Assembly: GCA_030390025.1 (NCBI GenBank)
Contig: CM059432.1
Location: forward strand, 71,674,001-71,738,000
Source: Squalus acanthias
Lineage: Eukaryota
DNA length: 64,000 nucleotides
Direction of reading: 5' to 3'
Of the stretch, positions 6,808 to 40,766 are shown piece after piece. The position numbers and the translations under genes were made by a program. The first letter of the stretch is position 1, and the number at the start of each line of letters is the position of its first letter. The notes below the pieces were generated by a model, which did not search any database, was not told the DNA's origin, and saw only the letters and a list, made by a program, of their open reading frames with translations.

Positions 6808-9461
6808 ATAAGAACATAAGAACATAAGAAATAGGAGCAGGAGTAGGCCAATCGGCCCCTCGAGCCTGCTCCGCCATTCAATAAGATCATGGCTGATCTG
6901 ATCCTAACCGCCAATCTACTATCTACTATCACAGAACCATCTCCTGCATCTAACAGAATTGCACACACGAAATAGGAGCAGAATCAGGCTACACGGTCCC
7001 TGGGCCCGCTCCACTACCCACAGGGCCATGACCGATCCGAACCTAGACTCATGTCCAAATTCCTGCCCGCTCCCCGTAACCCTTAATGCCCTTTACTTCT
7101 AGGAAACTGTCTATTTCTGTTTTAAATTTATTTAATGATGTAGCTTCTACAGCTTTTTGTGGCAGCATATTCCATGGACCTACCACCCTCTGAGTGAAGT
7201 AGTTCCTCCTCATCTCAGTTTTGAAAGAGCAGCCCCTTATTCTAAGACTATGTCCCCTAGTTCTAGTCTCACCCGTCATCGGGAACATCCTCCCCGCATC
7301 CACCCGATCCAACCCCTTCACAATCTTATATGTTTCAACAAGATCGCCTCTCATTCTTCTGAACTCCAATGAGTAGAGTCCCAATCTACCCAACCTCTCC
7401 TCATATGACCACCCCCTCATCCCCGGGATTAACCGAGTGAACCTTCTTTGTACTGCCTCGAGAGCAAGGATGTCTTTCCTTAAGTAAGGACACCAAAACT
7501 GTATGCAGTATTCCAGGTGCGGTCTCACCAATACCTTGTACAACTGAAGCAATACCTCCCTATTTTTATATTCTATCCCCCTAGCAATGAAAGCCAACAT
7601 TCCATTTGCCTTCTTAATCACTTGCTGCACCTGCATACTAACCTTTTGAGTTTCGTGCACCAGGACCCCCAGATCCCTTTGCACTTTAGTACTCTCCAGT
7701 TTCTTGCCATTAAGATAATAAATTGCTCTAGGATTTTTCCTGCCAAAGTGCATCACCTCACACTTTCCAGTGTTGTATTCCATCTGCCAAATCTCTGCCC
7801 ACTTACTTAGCCTGTTTATGTCCCCTTGCAGGTTTTTTATGTCCTCCTCACTCACTACTTTCCCTCCCATCTTAGTATCATCTGCAAATTTTGATATGTT
7901 ACACTTGGTCCCTTCCTCCAAATCGTTAATATAGATTGTAAAGAGTTGGGGACCCAGCACTGACCCCTGTGGAACACCACTAGTTACTGATTGCCAGTCT
8001 GAGAATGAACCATTTATCCCAACTCTTTGCTTTCTGTTAGATAGCCAATCCTCTATCCATGCCAGAATATTACCCCCAATCCCGTGATTTTTTACCTTAA
8101 GCAATAATCTTTTGTGTGGCACCTTGTCAAATGCCTTTTGGAAGTCTAAATACACTACGTCCACTGGTTCCCCTTTATCCACTCTATATGTTACTTCCTC
8201 AAAGAACTCCAGCAAATTTGTCAAACATGACTTCCCCTTCGTAAAACCATGCTGACTTTGTCCTATTAAATTATGATTATCCAAATGTCCTGTTACTGTT
8301 TCCTTAATAATGGACTCCAAAATTTTACCTACCACAGATGTTAGGCTAACCGGTCTATAGTTACCAGCCTTCTGTCTACTGCCCTTTTTAAATAAGGGTG
8401 TTACATTAGCAGTTTTCCAGTCTGCCGGGACCTTAGCAGAATCCAGGGAGTTTTGAAAAATTATTACCAATGCATCCACAATCCCTACCGCCACTTCCTT
8501 CAAGACTCTAGGATGTAAGCCATCAGGTCCAGGTGATTTATCCGCCTTGAGTCCCATTATTTTACCGAGTACCACTTCCTTAGTGGTTTTGATCGTGTTT
8601 AGCTCCTCTCCCCCTATAGCCCCCTGTTTGTCCAGTGTTGGGATATTCTTAGTGTCCTCTACTGTAAAGACTGATACAAAATATTCATTCAGTGTTTTTG
8701 CCATCTCCATATTTCCCACCATTAATTTCCCGGTCTCATCCTCTAAGGGACCAACATTTACTTTAGCCACCCTTTTTCTTTTTATATAACTATAAAAACT
8801 CTTACTATCTGTTTTTATATTTTTTGCTAATTTACTTTCATAATCTATCTTCCCTTTCTTAATCAATCTTTTTGTTATTTTTTGCTGCCTTTTAAAGTTT
8901 TCCCAATCCTCTGTCCTCCCACTAGATTTCGCTACCTTATATGCCCTTGTTTTTAGTCGAATACTATCCTTAATTTCTTTACTTAGCCACGGATGACTGT
9001 CCTTTCTTTTACACCCTTTTCTTTTCAGTGGAATATATTTTTTTTGGAAGTTGTAAAATAACTCCTTGAATGTACACCACTGATCATGTGTCGTCTTACC
9101 CTTTAATCTATTTTCCCAATCCACTCTACTCAATTCCGCTCGCATACCTTCATAGTCACCTTTATTCAAGCTTAGCACGCTTGTTTGAGATCCAACCTTC
9201 TCACCCTCTAATTGAATATGGAATTCAACCATGTTATGGTCACTCATTCCAAGGGGATCCTTTACTAGGACATTTTTAATTAATCCTGTCTCGTTACACA
9301 GGACCAGATCTAAGGTTGCTTGCCCCCTGGTCGGTTCAGTTACATACTGCTCAAGAAACCCATCCCTTATACACTCAATGAACTCATTCTCAAGGCAGCC
9401 CTGCCCCATTTGATTTGTCCAATTAATATGATAGTTAAAATCCCCCATAATTATAGATGTT
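6808..9461 (-). mobile_element. 5'-truncated CR1 LINE (copy D) with an uninterrupted 799-aa ORF2 remnant
   Basis: ORF 7049-9448. (TCTTATGT)n tail at 6808-6830. Host copy C rejoins as GDFNY|PNIDW. Confidence 0.95.
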
Positions 9462-31452: not shown

Positions 31453-32280
31453 AAGTTCTTCTCCAGCCGCAAGGAGATATCTTTAACCCTGGCACCGGGC
31501 AGGCAACACAACTTTCAGAACTCTCGGTCGCGGCTGCAGAGAACAGTATCTATCCCCCTGACTATACAATCCCCTACCACAACTACATTCCCTTTCACTC
31601 CCCCCACTTGAATGGCCTCCTGCACCATGGTGCCATGGTCAGCTTGCTCATCCATCCTACAGGCTTTTCCCTCAACCACACAGGCAGCAAGAACCTCATA
31701 CCTGTTGGACAAGGGCAAAGGCTGAGACTCCTCCAGCACTGCACCTGGGGTCCCCTTACCTGCCTGAGTTGCAGTCACACCGTCCTGTCCCTGACCACTA
31801 ACCAGACCTGTACCACTACCTAACCTAAGGGGTGTGACTGCCTCCTGGATCAAAGTGTCCAGGTAACTCTCCCCATCCCTGATGCCCCGCAATGTCTGCA
31901 CCTCAGACTCCAGCTCAAAAACTCTGAGCTGAAGTTCCTCAAGACGCAGGCACTTACTGCAAACATGGTTATCCGGGATCACAATGCTCTCCACAAACTC
32001 CCACATGCTGCAGTTGCGGCACACCACCTGCACTGCCATCCCTATATGACCTTGATTTATTTAATTACATTTGTGATTAAGTAACTTAGTTTACAGTGTA
32101 GTTTCCTGACTACTTACTTGATCTAGATTAAGTTAAGGGTACTGAAATTAAATATCTACTTGTAACACAAAGCACTACAAGTAGTGTAGTCAAAAATCAA
32201 CAACTCCTTCCCACTCTTTTCCGAATTCCCACTCTTTCCAAATTCCCAACCAAAGCACTCTTCTCAAGTCCACTCAGTTT
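31453..32280 (-). mobile_element. CR1 5' UTR and ORF1 N-terminal half
   Basis: ORF 31515-32039: CRNC..CSKC, coiled coil, LSNRYEVL, VVVGD, then CCLPGARVKD up to the MITE. Confidence 0.82.
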
Positions 32281-32702
32281 ATATTACAGAACCTACCCAG
32301 ACCATTACAGGCACTTGAAGCATGCCGTCAGAATTGCGATGTTGTGGTCTATGATACTCTAGTAGCAGAATAGATCTGCTTATGTGGTGCTCATCTGGTG
32401 TCCTGGGAAAGCAAGCATTTACTTGCATGATGCAATGATACTGATCATAAACAAGCTGGATATTGAGCAAGTGGAATCTTTTCCTGTTCAAGTAGATGAT
32501 AGAACTGATTAAAGGACCACGTATGGTCTCATGGGCCAATTCTAGGACACCTTGCTCTGTGGAGAATTCTGCCACTCAGGAAAATTGCAGTGGCTTGACA
32601 TGCTGTCACTGGCTATCCATAGGAAGGTGATGAACAGATTTGCTGATTGACTAAGGCTACTGATGTCTCCAGAGGCAGCCTCAAATTACCTTGTAACATA
32701 AT

Positions 32703-33463
32703 GGGGCAGAAATTAGGCTCGCCACGGGTGAGTATGCACTATGTACTCACCCGTGGACGGAACGAAAGTGTCGGTTTCTTGCATGCACTGCGCATGCGCG
32801 GGAAACCGGCACTTACGTTCCCCTGAAGGTTCAGAGGTCAAACGCGCACGCCGGAGGGCCAGCGTGTTCGCCTCGCACTTCAGGTTTTTTTTACAGGTTC
32901 CTCCGTGAGGGTAAGCACGGAGAAGATACACATTGAAAAAGGAGGCGCAAGGCCTTCTTTTAACAAGGTAAGTGTTGATTTTATTAAAAGTTAAACATTT
33001 TTTTCACAGATTTATCTTTTTTAATTACTGTAAAGAAAGGTAAGTTTAGTTTTAACCCCGTTAAAAAGTGTAATTAATTTTTTCAAAAATTTAAATTTTT
33101 GTTTGAAATAGTTAATTAATGTAATTTATAGTTATTTTAAAAATGTGATGTTTTTAAAAAAAATTATTTGTAGTTTTAGGGATGTTTTGGGGCCGATCTG
33201 TATTCATAGATTTGACAGGAAGACCTGTGAAATCTATGAATGAAAGATGGTCTGCTGCCATTGGCTCTCCATGGCCCACGTGATCCCAGGGGACGCATCG
33301 CACTAACTGCGCCCCTGGGATACGCAAGCACTGCACGCCGGCAGTTGGAGGAGGCCCAGGACCCGAATTCCCCGCGGGCCCAGAGGTCAACGGCTGGCGC
33401 GGTAGGTAGGTGCGTGCGCGATCCTTGCACCCGCGGGAAGCCAGGGAGCTGAATTTCTGGCCC
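32703..33463. mobile_element. 761-bp hairpin-rich MITE (family M2, copy a)
   Basis: TIR GGGGCAGAAATTAGGCTC / GAGCTGAATTTCTGGCCC. TSD AAT at 32700-32702 and 33464-33466. Confidence 0.88.
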
Positions 33464-33579
33464 AATAGTTCAGCCAATGGAGCTCAGGTGTTAGCTTGTG
33501 GTATTATTCATTGATGGTTTCCCTTGTGAAGGCAGTCTCAGCAAACAGTGCTCCTGTGTCAGCTTTAGGTAGGAACAAT

Positions 33580-36560
33580 TTGAGGGGCTAATCTTGTCAA
33601 CCTCCTTCTGGTCCCTCCCAGCTCTGACCCTTTGGACCCTGCCAGTGGATCGGCTAACATCGCCCCTCTGCATTTCCCTTCAAAATGTACGTTCACTTAT
33701 GAATAAGGGCCTTGCCATCCATGAGCTTATTGTGGACGATCATATTGACAACATGGCCTTGATGGAGACATGGTTGAGGGGTGATGACACCTTTCCCCTT
33801 AATGAAGCTTCCCTGCCTGGCTATACTTTCCAGCATTTGCCCTGCTCAAACCACCGCGGTGGTGGTGTAGCCCTTATCTCTAAATCACTACTTTTGTTCT
33901 GTCTGCCTATTCCTCTGGCAACTTCTCCTCCTTTGAGCATCTCACCTTGTTCCACCCCTCATGTCTCTCTTTTAAAATCCTTGTTCTGTATCGCCCACCC
34001 AAGTATCACACCAAGTTTCTCACTGAAATATCTTCTCTGCTTTCCTCCCTCTGTCTCTGCACTGAGTGACTTCGCATCCTTGGTGATTTCAACCTCCACC
34101 TCAACTCTTCTTGCTCTCTCTCCTCTGAGTTTACTACCCTTCTTTCCTCCCTTAATCTCTCCCTCCCATATAAACGCTCCTACCCATATACACGGCCACC
34201 CTCTCGATCTTGTCAGCTCACGTGGCCTCGCCACTCCCACCATAACTATCACTGATAAGGCAATCTCTGATCATTTCCTTATATCCCTCTCTACCCAAAT
34301 TCCCCTTCCCCTCCCAATCCCATTTCTTGCTGTGTCCGCCCCTGGAAAAAAAGCTCTCCCTTAAGTCCCTTACCACTGCACTTTCAAATTCCCAACTAGC
34401 TAGCCTTTGGCCTACAATTATTCATGACATTTCTGCAGCTACTGATCTGCTAAATCACACCCTCTCCACCACCTTTGATGGTCTTGTCCCCATTAAAACC
34501 ATTACATTCTCTCACTCTAGTCATTTTCCCTGTATATCCTTCAACTCCGCTGCCTTAAGTCCAAGGGACGCAGATTTGAACGTCTTTGGTGGACAACTGG
34601 TTTAACCATCCATCACTAGATATGGCTGGATCACAAAGTATTATTGGGTCCTGCTCTCCATCGCTAAAATTGCCCACTATTCTAAGATCATCCAGATTAT
34701 CCAAGATGTCCTTGCAAACTATCACCCCATCTCAAACCTCCCTTTTCTCTCCAAAGTCCTTGAACGTGTTGTCGCCTCCCAAATCTGTGCCCATCTTTCC
34801 CGGAACACCATGTTTGAATCCCTCCAATCTTGTTTCTGCCCCTGCCACAGTATTCAAACAGCTCTTACCAAAGTCAAAAATGACATCCTAGTTGACTGTG
34901 ACAAAGGTAAACTATCCCTCCTCGACCTGTCTGCAGCCTTTGACAAAGTTGACTACACAATTCTGCTTCAACACCCCTCCACAGTCGTCCAGCTGGATGG
35001 GACTGCACTCGCCTGGTTTCATTCTTATCTTTCCAGTCATGGCCAAAGAATCACATACAATGGCTTCTCTTCCCTCCTGCACCGTTACGTCTAGTGTCCC
35101 CCAAGAATCTATCCTTGGCCCCCTCCTATTTCTCATCTACATGTTGCCGCTCGGCGACATCATCCGACGACACAGCATCATTTTCCACATGTACGCTGAT
35201 GATACACAGCTCTACCTCATCTCCACCTCTCTCGACCCTTCCACCGTCTCTAAACTGTCAGACTGCTTGTCCAACATCTAGTATTGAATGAGCAGAAATT
35301 TCCTCCAATTAAATATCAGGAAAACCGGAGCCATTGTCTTCAGTCCACGCCACAAACTCCATTCCCTTTCCACCGACTCCATCCCTTTCCCTGGCAACTG
35401 TCTGAGGCTGAACCAGTCTGTTTGCAACCTTGGTGTTATATTTGACCCCGAGGTGAGCTTCCTACCTCATATCAACGTCATCACTAAGACCGCCTATTTC
35501 CACCTTCATAACATCGCCCGCCTCCGCCCTTGCCTCAGCTCATCTGCTGCTGAAACCCTCATCCATGCCTTTGTTACATCTAGACTTTACTATACCAACG
35601 CACTCCTGGCTGGCCTCCCTCGTTCTATACTCCATAGACTTGAGGTCATCCAAAACTCTGCTGCCCATGTCCTAACTCCCACCAAGTCCCGCTCACCCAT
35701 CTCCTGTGCTCGCTGACCTTCATTAGCTTCCAATTAAGCAATGTCTCGATTTTAAAATTTTCATCTTTGTTTTCAAATCCCTCCATGGCATTGTCCCTCC
35801 CTATCTCTTGTAAGAAATCGTGAATTGGAGGAAATAACTTGGGACAAAAAAGTCTCTTCAGTCTGGTGTTAGAATAACTGGATAGACGCTTAGAATTTGC
35901 TTATGTTCTTGGTTCCCTGTGAATGTTATAACATTCTGCACCGTGGCGGTGCCCTTGTTTCCAGACAAGCTGTCTGCTGTTTGTGTGCTAGAAAGGTTGT
36001 TGACTGTATCTTTGATAATCTACTCTAGCACAGACGGTGAAGGGAAGGGAAGAGCTGTTTGTGCACGCCCAGCCATCTGTCCAATCCGGACTGATACCAG
36101 CTGCTTGTCCCGGTCGTATGTCTAATATATCTATCTTGATTGCGTGTCGTACTTAACTTAAACTACCGCTCTTTAATAAAATGCCTTACAACTCCTAAGA
36201 CCCTTTGGGTAATCTGTGTGTGACCTGTGATCAAAATCTTACACTCTAATCTCCAGCTCTACAATCCCCCTAGATTTCTATGCTCTGCCAATTCTGGCCT
36301 CTTGAGCATTCCCAATTTTAATCGCTCCACCATTGGCGGCCATACCTTCTGCTGCCTAGGTTCTTAGATCTGGAATTCCCTCCCTAAACCCCCTTTGCCT
36401 CTCTACCTCTCTTTCCTCCTTTTAGACGCTCCTTAAAACCCATCTGCCCCAATATCTCCATATATGGCTCGGTGTTAAATTTTGTTTGATAATACTCCTG
36501 TGAAATGCCTTGGGATGTTTTACTACATTAAAGTACTATATAAATGCAAGTTGTTGTTAG
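33580..36560 (+). mobile_element. L2 LINE (APE to 3' tail, with internal deletions), interrupted by a solo LTR
   Basis: [35 protein letters not shown] and MYADDTQLY motifs. Tail ATAAATGCAAGTTGTTGTT at ~36540-36558. Confidence 0.88.
35809..36243 (+). mobile_element. 435-bp solo LTR
   Basis: Termini TGTAAGA...TCTTACA. 4-bp TSD CTCT at 35805-35808 and 36244-36247. AATAAA at 36175. Confidence 0.85.
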
Positions 36561-37795
36561 GTAGGACCACATTGGTCTCTATATTTTGGACTGGGGGAAC
36601 AGTCAGATGAGTAATTGTGATGCTTGAACTGCCTGTCCTCCCTCTACTCCTCAAAAAAAAGGTATAGAGTTATTCCCAATGGAAAACCCACTGAATTTGT
36701 TTGGGGAAGGGATGAAAAAATTAAGCCCCACACCAGAAGACACAAAGTTACATTTTGAAGTCAATGGCAAAAAAAACTGGGGCAATAAATCAACTTTTTA
36801 AAAAGTAAGGATTTTACAAGACTATTTGCAGTACCTACTGTGGCTCTTTAAATTTACTTCTACCTTTTAATTCATCTCCAGCAATGCTGGATGGCTATTA
36901 TGTAGGGACATAGAAACATATCCGGGAAATTCGATAAGGCCCAAAAACAGGCGGGGGCAACGCGGGTCAAGATTTGCTCGTGCCCGATTAGAAAGCGCAG
37001 GCAGCTTGTTAATTTGGTGCTGCCTGCTAATTTAAATGATTTTAGCACACAGCCCAGTGACTATTGTGCTCCTGACAGGCTGTGCGCTCAGCAGGAGATG
37101 CAAGGTCGTGTCACTGGAGTGATGCTGCATTTCCTAAAGCAAGGCTATTAGTTTTGAAGGCAGTCTCTAGCCCTTAAAGGTGAACTGCCCTCTGAAAAAA
37201 AATTTAAACCATTCAAAACTAGGCGGTCTGCAGCTTTAAAGCTGAATTGTCTTCTGCACAAAAAATGGTAAAAGTGCTTCAACACTAACACAGATGGTTC
37301 AACGATCCAGGGAAAGGGCACCCAGGGTCTCGCACGCAGCACTCCAGCTTTGTGCATGGGATCAACACTGGAAGAGAGGCCCTCCAGAAAGAAGGATATG
37401 GGACCACAATGTCAAGGCCACCGTTGGCAGCAATGTCACCCCCAGGACCTGGCTCTAATGCCCAAAGAAGTTTCATGACCTTAGACCAGTGGTCAAGGTC
37501 AGTGAATGCATCTTCAAAAGTCATCTCCTACCAACTGCACCACGAGCCTCACGCATTGCACAATGCATGACCCCCCGCCCCCCCATCACTCATCTACCAA
37601 CAATGTCTACCAAACATGTGGCACACCTCACATTCCTAGCTTCATCTCACCCCCTTAGCGGAGACGGTGCTGGCCATTCTTGGAAGGGGCATGGCTGAGC
37701 CTTGGGCCAGCGACTGAAAGAATACAAGATGCTGGTATCCTCATACGTTATCCCCCTTCTCACATCTCACAATCTCTTCTGATGTACAAGCTACA

Positions 37796-40766
37796 AATAT
37801 ATTCCACTGAGAAGAAAAGAGTGTAAAAGAAAAGACAGTCATCCGTGGCTAAGTAAAGAAATTAAGGATAGTATTCAACTAAAAACAAGGGCATATAAGG
37901 TAGCCAAATCTAGTGGGAGGATAGAGGATTGGGAAAACTTTAAAAGACAGCAAAAAATAACAAAAAGATTGATTAAGAAAGGGAAGATAGATTATGAAAG
38001 TAAATTAGCAAAAAATATAAAAACAGATAGTAAGAGTTTTTATAGTTATATAAAAAGAAAAAGGGTGGCTAAAGTAAATGTTGGTCCCTTAGAGGGTGAG
38101 ACCAGGAAATTAATGGTGGGAAATATGGAGATGGCAAATACACTGAATGACTATTTTGTATCAGTCTTTACAGTAGAGGACACTAAGAATATCCCAACAC
38201 TGGACAAACAGGGGGCTATAGGTGGGGGGGGGGGGGGGGGAGGAGCTAAACACGATCAAAATCACTAAGGAAGTGGCACTCGTTAAAATAATGGGACTCA
38301 AGGTGGATAAATCACCTGGACCTGATGGCTTACATCCTAGGGTCTTGAGGGAAGTGGCGGTAGGGATTGTGGATGCATTGGTAATAATTTTCCAAAACTC
38401 CCTGGACTCAGCAAAGATCCCGGCAGACTGGAAAACTGCTAATGTAACACCCTTATTTAAAAAGGGCAGTAGACAGAAGGCTGGAAACTATAGACTGGTT
38501 AGCCTAACATCTGTGGTAGGTAAAATTTTGGAGTCCATTATTAAGGAGACAGTAACAGGACATTTGGATAATCATAATTTAATAGGACAAAGTCAGCATG
38601 GTTTTATGAAGGGGAAGTCATGTTTGACAAATTTGCTGGAGTTCTTTGAGGAAGTAACATACAGGGTGAATAAAGGGGAACCAGTGGATGTGGTGTATTT
38701 AGACTTCCAAAAGGCATTTGACAAGGTACCACACAAAAGATTATTGCTTAAGATAAAAAATCACGGGATTGGGGGTAATATTCTGGCATGGATAGAGGAT
38801 TGGCTATCTAACAGAAGGCAGAGAGTTGGGATAAATGGTTAATTCTCAGACTGGCAATCAGTAACTAGTGGTGTTCCGCAGGGGTCAGTGCTGGGTCCCC
38901 AACTCTTTACAATCTATATTAACGATTTGGAGGAGGGGACCGAGTGTAACATATCAAAGTTTGCAGATGATACTAAGATGAGAGGGAAAGTAGTGAGTGA
39001 GGAGGACATAAAAAATCTGCAAGGGGACAGAGACAGGCTAAGTAAGTGGGCAGAGATTTGGCAGATGGAATACAATACTGGAAAGTGTGAGGTTATGCAC
39101 TTTGGCAGGAAAAATAGTAGAGCAAGTTAATGGCCCAAAAATTAGTGCCGCTACGCGAGAGTACGCACTGCGTACTCTCGCGTATTCTGTCTCCAATTGC
39201 CGGTTTTCTGCATGCACTGTGCATGCGCTGAAAACCGGCACTTGGTGAATGGAAAAGGGGGCGGGTCCTAGGTGAACCGCGTGCGCGCTACAGGCTGCGC
39301 GCACGCTGTGCACTTAGTGGTTTCAACGCGCAGGTAAGTACGGAAGATTCTACACATAAAAAAAGGAGTAAGACCCACTTTTAACAAGGTAAGTAGTGAA
39401 TTAAGTATTATTTTGAATTTTTTTTAACAGGTATATCTTTTTTAGAGACTTTAAAGACAGGTAAGTTTATTTTTATAACTTTTTAAAAGATTTTAAATTT
39501 TTTCAAAAATTTAATTTAATTTTTTATTTAAAATTTATTTAACTATACTTATTTTATTAATGTGATGGTTTTTTTTTAATTTAATTGAGGTTTAGCGGTT
39601 CTTTTGGGGGGCTATAGTATTCATAACTTTCACAGCACTTATGTGAAAGTTATGAATGGAAGATGGTGTGCTGCCATTGGCTCTAACTGAGTCACGTGAT
39701 CCCACAGCTCGCACGAATTAACTACGCCGGTGGGATACGCAAGCCCAGCACAGCAGCTGTCCAGAACATCAAGTTCGTGCGAGCTGGAACTGAAAAAGCC
39801 AACGCGGAGTGAGAGATCGCGGGGAGGCCTTACCCTCGCACGAAGGCTTCCTCACGAATTTTTGGGCCATTATCTTAATGGCAAGAAACTGGAAAGTACT
39901 GAAGTACAAAGGGATCTGGGGGTCCTGGTGCACAAAACTCAAAAGGTTAGTATGCAGGTGCAGCAAGTGATTAAGAAGGCCAATGGAATGTTGGCTTTCA
40001 TTGCTAGGGGGATAGAATATAAAAATAGGGAGGTATTGCTTCAGTTGTACAAGGTATTGGTGAGACCGCACCTGGAATACTGCATACAGTTTTGGTGTCC
40101 ATACTTAAGAAAAGACATACTTGCTCTCGAGTCAGTACAAAGAAGGTTCACTCGGTTAATCCCGGGGATGAGGGGATGGACATATGAGGAGAGGTTGGGT
40201 AGATTGGGACTCTACTCATTGGAGTTCAGAAGAATGAGAGGCGATCTTATTGAAACATATAAGATTGTGAAGGGGTTGGATCAGGTGGATGCGGGGAGGA
40301 TGTTCCCGATGATGGGTGAAACTAGAACTAGGGGGCATAGTCTTAGAATAAGGGGCTGCTCTTTCAAAACTGAGATGAGAAGGAACTACTTCACTCAGAG
40401 GGTGGTAGGTCCATGGAATATGCTGCCCCAAAAAGCTGTAGAAGCTACATCATTACATAAATTTAAAACAGAAATAGACAGTTTCCTGGAAGTAAAGGGA
40501 ATTCAGGGTTACGGGGAGCGGGCAGGAATTTGGACATGAGTCTAGGTTCGGATCGGTCATGGCCCTGTGGGTAGCGGAGCGGGCCCAGGAGCCGTGTAGC
40601 CTGATCCTGCTCCTATTTCGTGTGTCCAATTCTGTTAGATTCAGGAGATGGTTCTGTGATAGTAGATTGGCGGTTAGGATCAGATCAGCCATGATCTTAT
40701 TGAATGGCGGAGCAGGCTCGAGGGGCCAATTGGCCTACTCCTGCTCCTATTTCTTATGTTCTTATG
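37796..40766 (+). mobile_element. 5'-truncated CR1 LINE (copy E), same subfamily as copy D, interrupted by a MITE
   Basis: Translations nearly identical to ORF 7049-9448. Frameshift at a G-run ~38224-38240. (TCTTATGT)n tail. Confidence 0.93.
39132..39868. mobile_element. 737-bp hairpin-rich MITE (family M2, copy b)
   Basis: TIR GGCCCAAAAATTAGTG / CACGAATTTTTGGGCC. Flanks AAT/ATT (TSD with one mismatch). Comparison with copy D gives the empty site ..AGAGCAA-TTATTATCTT. Confidence 0.9.

Follow-up and report, generated by a model that had tools for sequence, protein, structure and literature searches.

The two elements considered here, M2a and M2b, lie in a 64,000-nucleotide stretch of Squalus acanthias DNA (the window; GCA_030390025.1, contig CM059432.1, positions 71,674,001 to 71,738,000). 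Both are non-autonomous PIF/Harbinger elements, or Harbinger MITEs (miniature transposable elements with inverted repeats), and both carry a chain of internal hairpins in which the two arms have changed together. The covariation is real and exceeds chance across subfamilies. With a probability of roughly 0.55, we attribute the matched-pair changes to one arm being occasionally re-copied from the other by template switching, while the arms are likely retained in duplex DNA as pairs of protein-binding sites. The feature is a real one within an ordinary element class. A known mutational process, operating on paired sites that are conserved, accounts for most of it, and one quantitative gap is left. 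The elements and their parts, in window positions, are as follows.

32703-33463, + strand: M2a, a non-autonomous Harbinger element of 761 bp from subfamily 1 (15 were sampled), 96.3% identical to its subfamily consensus
32700-32702, + strand: M2a left target-site duplication AAT (right copy AAT at 33464-33466)
32703-32714, + strand: M2a left terminal inverted repeat (TIR), about 12 bp, imperfect (right TIR at 33452-33463)
32722-32756, no strand: M2a H1, an 11-bp half-site as an inverted pair with a 7-nt spacer, 22 nt from the end; common to autonomous elements
32768-32812, no strand: M2a H2, with an inner palindrome at 32781-32797; common to autonomous elements
32844-32869, no strand: H2b region of M2a, here weak and shifted; not conserved by the distant family
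33202-33241, no strand: M2a H3, a MITE-only hairpin; loop 33220-33223 in the opposite orientation to that of the subfamily, and a mismatch private to M2a at 33229
33244-33282, no strand: M2a conserved non-stem block with promoter-like motifs; we take the motifs to be YY1, CCAAT and E-box
33283-33321, no strand: M2a H4, 10-bp stem
39132-39868, + strand: M2b, 737-bp non-autonomous Harbinger element, subfamily 8
39129-39131, + strand: M2b left flank AAT (right flank ATT at 39869-39871; empty site ATT)
39152-39184, no strand: M2b H1, perfect 16-bp arms, 1-nt loop
39197-39241, no strand: M2b H2, with an inner palindrome at 39210-39226
39279-39306, no strand: M2b H2b, 10-bp arms
39619-39657, no strand: M2b H3, perfect 16-bp arms
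39699-39736, no strand: M2b H4, 7-bp arms

An earlier note on this DNA had described M2a and M2b as colinear but diverged elements whose stems stay paired, and the coordinates and every stem quoted there were borne out in the sequence. The elements shared 69.6% identity over 641 aligned columns (70% between their subfamily consensuses). H1 differed by three double substitutions between 32722-32756 and 39152-39184, forming 13 bp with a 9-nt loop in M2a and 16 bp with a 1-nt loop in M2b. In H3, two adjacent double substitutions separated 33202-33241 from 39619-39657, and a third (G-C versus C-G) was masked in M2a by the private mismatch at 33229. The exchange of ATCCCAG/CTGGGAT for ATCCCAC/GTGGGAT was also found, and the stem CGGTTTC..GAAACCG was present in both elements.

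The sample aligned for the subfamily comparison comprised 117 full-length copies (119 were extracted, and two faulty extractions were dropped). The best matches to M2a and M2b made up about half of them, and most others came from the first 70 matches to a 28-base core, on one contig. The copies formed 15 clusters, taken as subfamilies, 11 of which contained at least two copies. Across these 11 subfamilies, 43 of the 64 stem pairs were invariant, nine varied on one side and 12 on both. Two or more Watson–Crick types were present in 10 of the 12 pairs varying on both sides. With partners drawn from variable non-stem columns, the null mean was 2.76, and 10 was reached in 1 of 10,000 draws. Counted over all variable pairs, 10 of 21 were compensated in the master lineages. 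In 20 real copies, 30 cells of H3 and H4 had changed on both sides, compared with 9.9 after shuffling (0/500 as high) and 1–8 when the arms were slid, a shuffle control that ignores relatedness. Folding was assessed on six subfamily consensuses with 30 shuffles each. On both strands, z-scores were −5 to −11 for the 5' block and −2.5 to −9 for the 3' block; for the AT-rich middle, z was close to 0.

The arm sequences were conserved as well. Among the subfamily consensuses, 33 of 128 stem columns were variable versus 182 of 308 non-stem GC columns, a contrast that is partly ascertained, since these subfamilies had also served to define the stems. Parsimony steps were 0.34 in stems and 1.10 outside. 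A distant sister family, not used to define the stems, was compared by six of its 10 copies (the other four lacked the 3' part or had it rearranged). Its identity with subfamily 2 was 84% in H2, 94% in inner H2, 85% in H3, 90% in H4 and 50% in H2b, versus 56% outside the stems; therefore, sequence was conserved as well as pairing. The earlier proposal that structure rather than sequence is maintained held for the pairing, which was kept beyond chance, but not for the sequence, as shown by the invariant pairs (43/64) and the 84–94% identity against 56%. H3 of the distant family paired at 12–14 of 15 positions, some pairs being new, and had lost the adjacent AAGATGG block. The distant family (L219, L221, L222, L224, L225) had the same layout, with H2b lost and a new hairpin after H2; the arms of this hairpin contained TTGACAG, a word also found in H3.

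The first 185 columns were gap-free among the 11 consensuses, as would be expected for phased protein sites. In resident copies, stems decayed like other sequence after insertion (non-CpG 0.5% in stems vs 0.78%; CpG 1.9% vs 1.7%), and the constraint therefore acts on active elements and not on the host's copies. One central pair of H1 was mismatched in 18 of the first 50 loci listed, of 3,059 (11 T·C/G·A, six C·A/T·G, one C·C). Twelve of the 18 mismatches were non-wobble on either strand. Pairing at this position was therefore unneeded for amplification.

Footprints of arm-to-arm copying are present in the family. Subfamily 6 has three positions at which the right arm of H3 departs from the left. 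Of the 61 loci listed (from the first 100 of 3,339 matches), 39 had a left arm exactly mirroring the right, 20 had three mismatches, two were one step away and none was two steps away. The sister subfamilies 5 and 9 placed the mismatched left arm of subfamily 6 nearer to the ancestral state. A single copy (L231) had the reciprocal conversion of the three bases. The H3 loop of M2a (33220-33223) is the reverse complement of the subfamily loop. Three copies genome-wide, including M2a, had this inverted loop, at least two of them apparently independent; none was among the matches listed (100 of 2,673) in a search allowing any 4-nt loop. In subfamilies 3, 4 and 14, the spacer within H1 was nearly the reverse complement of its counterpart elsewhere, and H1 was extended outward in subfamilies 11–13. 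Multi-base compensation, stem extension and loop inversion have been named as footprints of template-switch mutation (Monttinen & Loytynoja 2022, PMC8794818). Both loop inversion and the one-step removal of several mismatches, with the opposite arm as source, were observed here. That work dealt with RNA genes selected for structure, whereas the present family is a DNA transposon whose thousands of copies in a single genome allow the events to be counted.

Frequent self-repair in resident copies was rejected: of the five double changes seen, three were at CpG pairs and two matched the states of other subfamilies. When double changes at one H3 pair were sought across the genome, three matches came up, two compensated and one not. 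An H1 pair supposed to be invariant was tried for a test of the same sort, and its matches proved to be the distant sister family instead. Some single copies (L084, L077, L204, L210, L220, L222) had deletions or a short inversion that began within H1, H2 or H3, for which hairpin-induced rearrangement is a possible cause.

The family is abundant. The 28-base core had 28,509 exact matches in the 3.7-Gb genome, corresponding to at least 28,509 copies, and the H1 pattern was found at 24,185 loci. The copies were 677–772 bp long, had TIRs and no transposase, and formed homogeneous subfamilies at high copy number, as MITEs do. M2b is young, with 39 other scored copies at 96–98%. A genome search with PF13359 gave 150 scored matches, most with open frames of approximately 385–392 aa. 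Many Harbinger transposase frames of 384–392 aa lacked stops, and a second autonomous family with different ends was seen (L170, L172–L175, L180); Harbinger elements may have been recently active in this genome.

The autonomous elements are 4.5–4.7 kb long and encode a DDE_Tnp_4 transposase and, from the opposite strand, a Myb/SANT protein (L161 and L166: PF13359, E 2e-43; PF13873, E 4e-11 to 4e-14). For most transposase-bearing loci scored, positions 1–112 of M2b shared 89–96% identity with the 5' end; within a set of 30 such loci, most fell at 89–95%. Short TIRs were common to MITEs and autonomous elements, H1 and H2 stood at identical offsets in both, and the autonomous 5' ends were in register with the MITEs, without gaps over the first 150 columns in 12 of 13. 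H1 and H2 were inherited with autonomous Harbinger ends at identical spacing. The ends of M2a resembled those of L161 and L162, and the ends of M2b those of L164–L169 and L178. Particular MITE and autonomous subfamilies had end variants in common. We read these variants as a probable sign that ends were exchanged between MITE and autonomous subfamilies. Mosaic MITE subfamilies were also seen, some with a right or left end like that of autonomous elements (L072, L073, L068, L084 and others), which suggests that end exchange is frequent. The last 160 bases of L164–L169 were autonomous 3' ends with palindromes of their own and compensatory changes between subfamilies. In L167 and L168, MITE copies or fragments directly abutted autonomous Harbinger ends, apparently with their duplications used as targets. 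Homology of the AT-rich middle to autonomous elements is not claimed, as the signal was marginal (three of 16 alignments exceeded the best of 30 block shuffles).

The quantitative gap concerns the rate of arm copying. In resident copies, one-sided private breaks numbered 108 in 6,696 pair observations, or about 1–1.6% per pair and 16–26% per 16-bp hairpin. Arm copying affected approximately 0.1% of hairpins, a value based on three inverted loops against 2,673 matches with any 4-nt loop and on one conversion against 670 three-mismatch copies, the latter denominator being estimated from the loci listed. With the subfamily tree amounting to 0.84 substitutions per site, the resident-copy rate cannot hold the stems. 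Transposing lineages therefore need either a higher rate or selection for symmetry. Template-switch footprints are present, but arm copying in resident copies is too rare to hold the stems alone. For this reason, a DNA-level structural role for the MITE-only H3 and H4 is possible.

Under our preferred explanation, the Myb/SANT protein and host promoter factors would bind the half-sites, and selection would act on the ability of each element to transpose. Tolerated positions would drift in one arm and then be copied to the other. The copying rate would probably be raised during transposition-linked repair synthesis, which would also swap end segments between MITE and autonomous subfamilies; the mosaic ends may point to such frequent switching. 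Several results weigh against this explanation. Arm copying was about 100-fold rarer than decay, too slow to hold the stems neutrally, by rates that rest on three events and one event, and raised template switching in transposing elements is assumed as our preferred inference. In each of the 15 elements scanned, the H1 half-site recurred at a distance of 39 nt from the right end, yet its overall recurrence was not above that in shuffled sequence in 12 of them (p 0.035–0.73), and it was not retained as a dispersed repeat. H3 and H4 had no BLAST match in 20 transposase-bearing loci, neighbouring MITE copies aside. The AT-rich middle was also fairly conserved in the distant family (78%), and the stem contrast among subfamilies is subject to the ascertainment mentioned above. 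One H3 pair takes four Watson–Crick types, which looks like structure, and the length of the H3 loop varies among subfamilies.

The last two points, together with the rate gap, suit an explanation in which symmetry itself is selected in DNA: H3 and H4 above all would extrude as cruciforms or single-strand stems when the element is excised or replicated or a gap is repaired, and would aid copying, so that rare re-symmetrised variants would be favoured among active elements. The strand symmetry of the stems suits a cruciform, H3 of the distant family was paired at 12–14 of 15 positions with 56% identity outside the stems and the AAGATGG block gone, and the mobility of the Harbinger MITE mPing is modulated by internal sequences (PMC9921582). 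We nevertheless consider selected symmetry somewhat unlikely, because amplification reached hundreds of copies in subfamilies whose H3 has three mismatches or whose H1 has a non-wobble one, most positions in the arms stay constant, so that sequence matters, and H3 is not needed for the movement of the autonomous elements fetched. For selected symmetry, the best candidate is H3, which is MITE-only, variable in its loop and paired in the distant family. The specific proposal that the hairpin symmetry of a cut-and-paste MITE with a DDE transposase is selected, H3 and H4 folding in transposition or gap repair and raising copying, is likewise rather doubtful. If it were true, active lineages would restore pairs far faster than resident copies do, through a structural cis-element of a kind not found in the Harbinger literature searched. 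It is improbable that the hairpins have no job, having been born by template switching and persisting through mutational self-repair alone. Such an origin would agree with the copying footprints, with the new hairpin that the distant family has in place of H2b, and with the near-neutral decay of stems after insertion, which indicates that the host does not conserve them. Neutral homogenisation, however, would keep the arms alike without slowing their divergence, whereas arm columns diverge far less than their neighbours, and the measured repair falls about 100-fold short of decay. The question posed by the gap is thus whether repair synthesis in transposition is highly prone to template switching or whether symmetry is selected.

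The structured-RNA or small-RNA role suggested in the earlier note, with selection keeping RNA stems, is very unlikely. Covariation, strong folding, the promoter-like motifs and three GGTAAG donor-like motifs that are invariant or nearly so in the near subfamilies would fit such a role. The GGTAAG motifs stand at similar spacing in M2a (32910, 32967, 33039) and M2b (39333, 39388, 39460). However, both strands folded alike (consensus −154.9 vs −154.7). The strand-specific G·U tolerance expected of RNA was not seen: mismatch states in amplified subfamilies (n = 21) comprised three G·T, seven A·C and 11 others (strand p = 0.34), with no strand bias or G·U excess. Six of the 11 compensatory types were transversions, which have no wobble intermediate. 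The Rfam search called for in the earlier note gave no match at E ≤ 1 over 32000-40500. The splice-like motifs were weakened as a conserved feature, as two of the three were lost in the distant family. No genomic copy joined the third motif to H3, in a search that covered this one candidate intron. In addition, cut-and-paste elements are not copied through RNA. In the near subfamilies, the GGTAAG trio resembles splice donors or repeated binding sites; the distant family keeps the third motif only.

An exact 3-bp target-site duplication was present in 81 of 128 full-length copies, with an AWT consensus that was mostly AAT or ATT, and a palindromic target bias extended about 7 bp to either side of the duplication. 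Among the 128 copies, the two flanks disagreed at the middle base in 37 and at the outer bases in 14 and 15. The discordant types AAT/ATT (13) and ATT/AAT (six) were unequal in number. M2b is itself discordant, with ATT at the empty site and in the right flank and AAT in the left. Of the 46 copies with a homologous empty site, 12 were discordant; in seven of these, a canonical AWT stood on the side differing from the target, one was ambiguous and four looked like later mutation. The discordant duplications fit donor-site bases carried along with the element. Such carry-over has been proposed and seen for mPing, with staggered cutting through the duplication (Gilbert 2015, PMC4561436; Liu 2024, PMC11254759). 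Flanking bases thus travel with the element in both systems; the mPing work used yeast assays and Cas-targeted insertion, whereas natural insertions were counted here, 37 of 128 being discordant at the middle base. The discordant duplications provide genome-scale support for the transfer of Harbinger donor bases to the new site.

The family resembles known PIF/Harbinger MITEs (Tourist-like elements, mPing, zebrafish Harbinger3N_DR) in its 3-bp duplication, wider target preference and short TIRs. A target preference wider than the duplication has been reported for PIF/Harbinger elements (PMC2836001), and their partner is likewise a DDE transposase with a Myb-like protein (PMC2836001, PMC9710019). 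In Harbinger3_DR, a 9-bp subterminal motif is reported to be bound by the Myb-like protein (PMC9710019; PMC2836001). Unlike these elements, the present family has an AWT target instead of TTA/TAA and a chain of five or six covarying internal palindromes. The study of the effect of internal sequences on mPing mobility (PMC9921582) does not use the words "hairpin" or "palindrom". In literature searches, which did not extend to Repbase and Dfam, no listed paper described this family or MITE hairpins that covary; a name for it may already exist in those two databases. Subterminal hairpins with compensatory changes are found in IS200/IS605 elements and Helitrons, which use HUH enzymes and make no such duplication. 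The present family shares the hairpins and compensatory changes and differs in its DDE partner, TIRs and 3-bp duplication, by which an identity as an HUH single-strand transposon (Helitron, IS200/605) was ruled out. Covariation, which is usually taken as proof of RNA structure, can arise in DNA by arm-to-arm copying, and in this family, with its tens of thousands of copies, such copying can be counted.

The window consisted mostly of debris of repeats of the long interspersed nuclear element (LINE) type. Broken endonuclease- and reverse transcriptase-like frames of this type lay beside both MITEs (33573-35716 and 37783-40539), and M2b had split one such copy:

37795-40667, + strand: host LINE copy split by M2b, with reverse transcriptase-like frames; the LINE label was read from the translation

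An uninterrupted relative of this host LINE was located at 6921-9040 on the opposite strand (96–97%).

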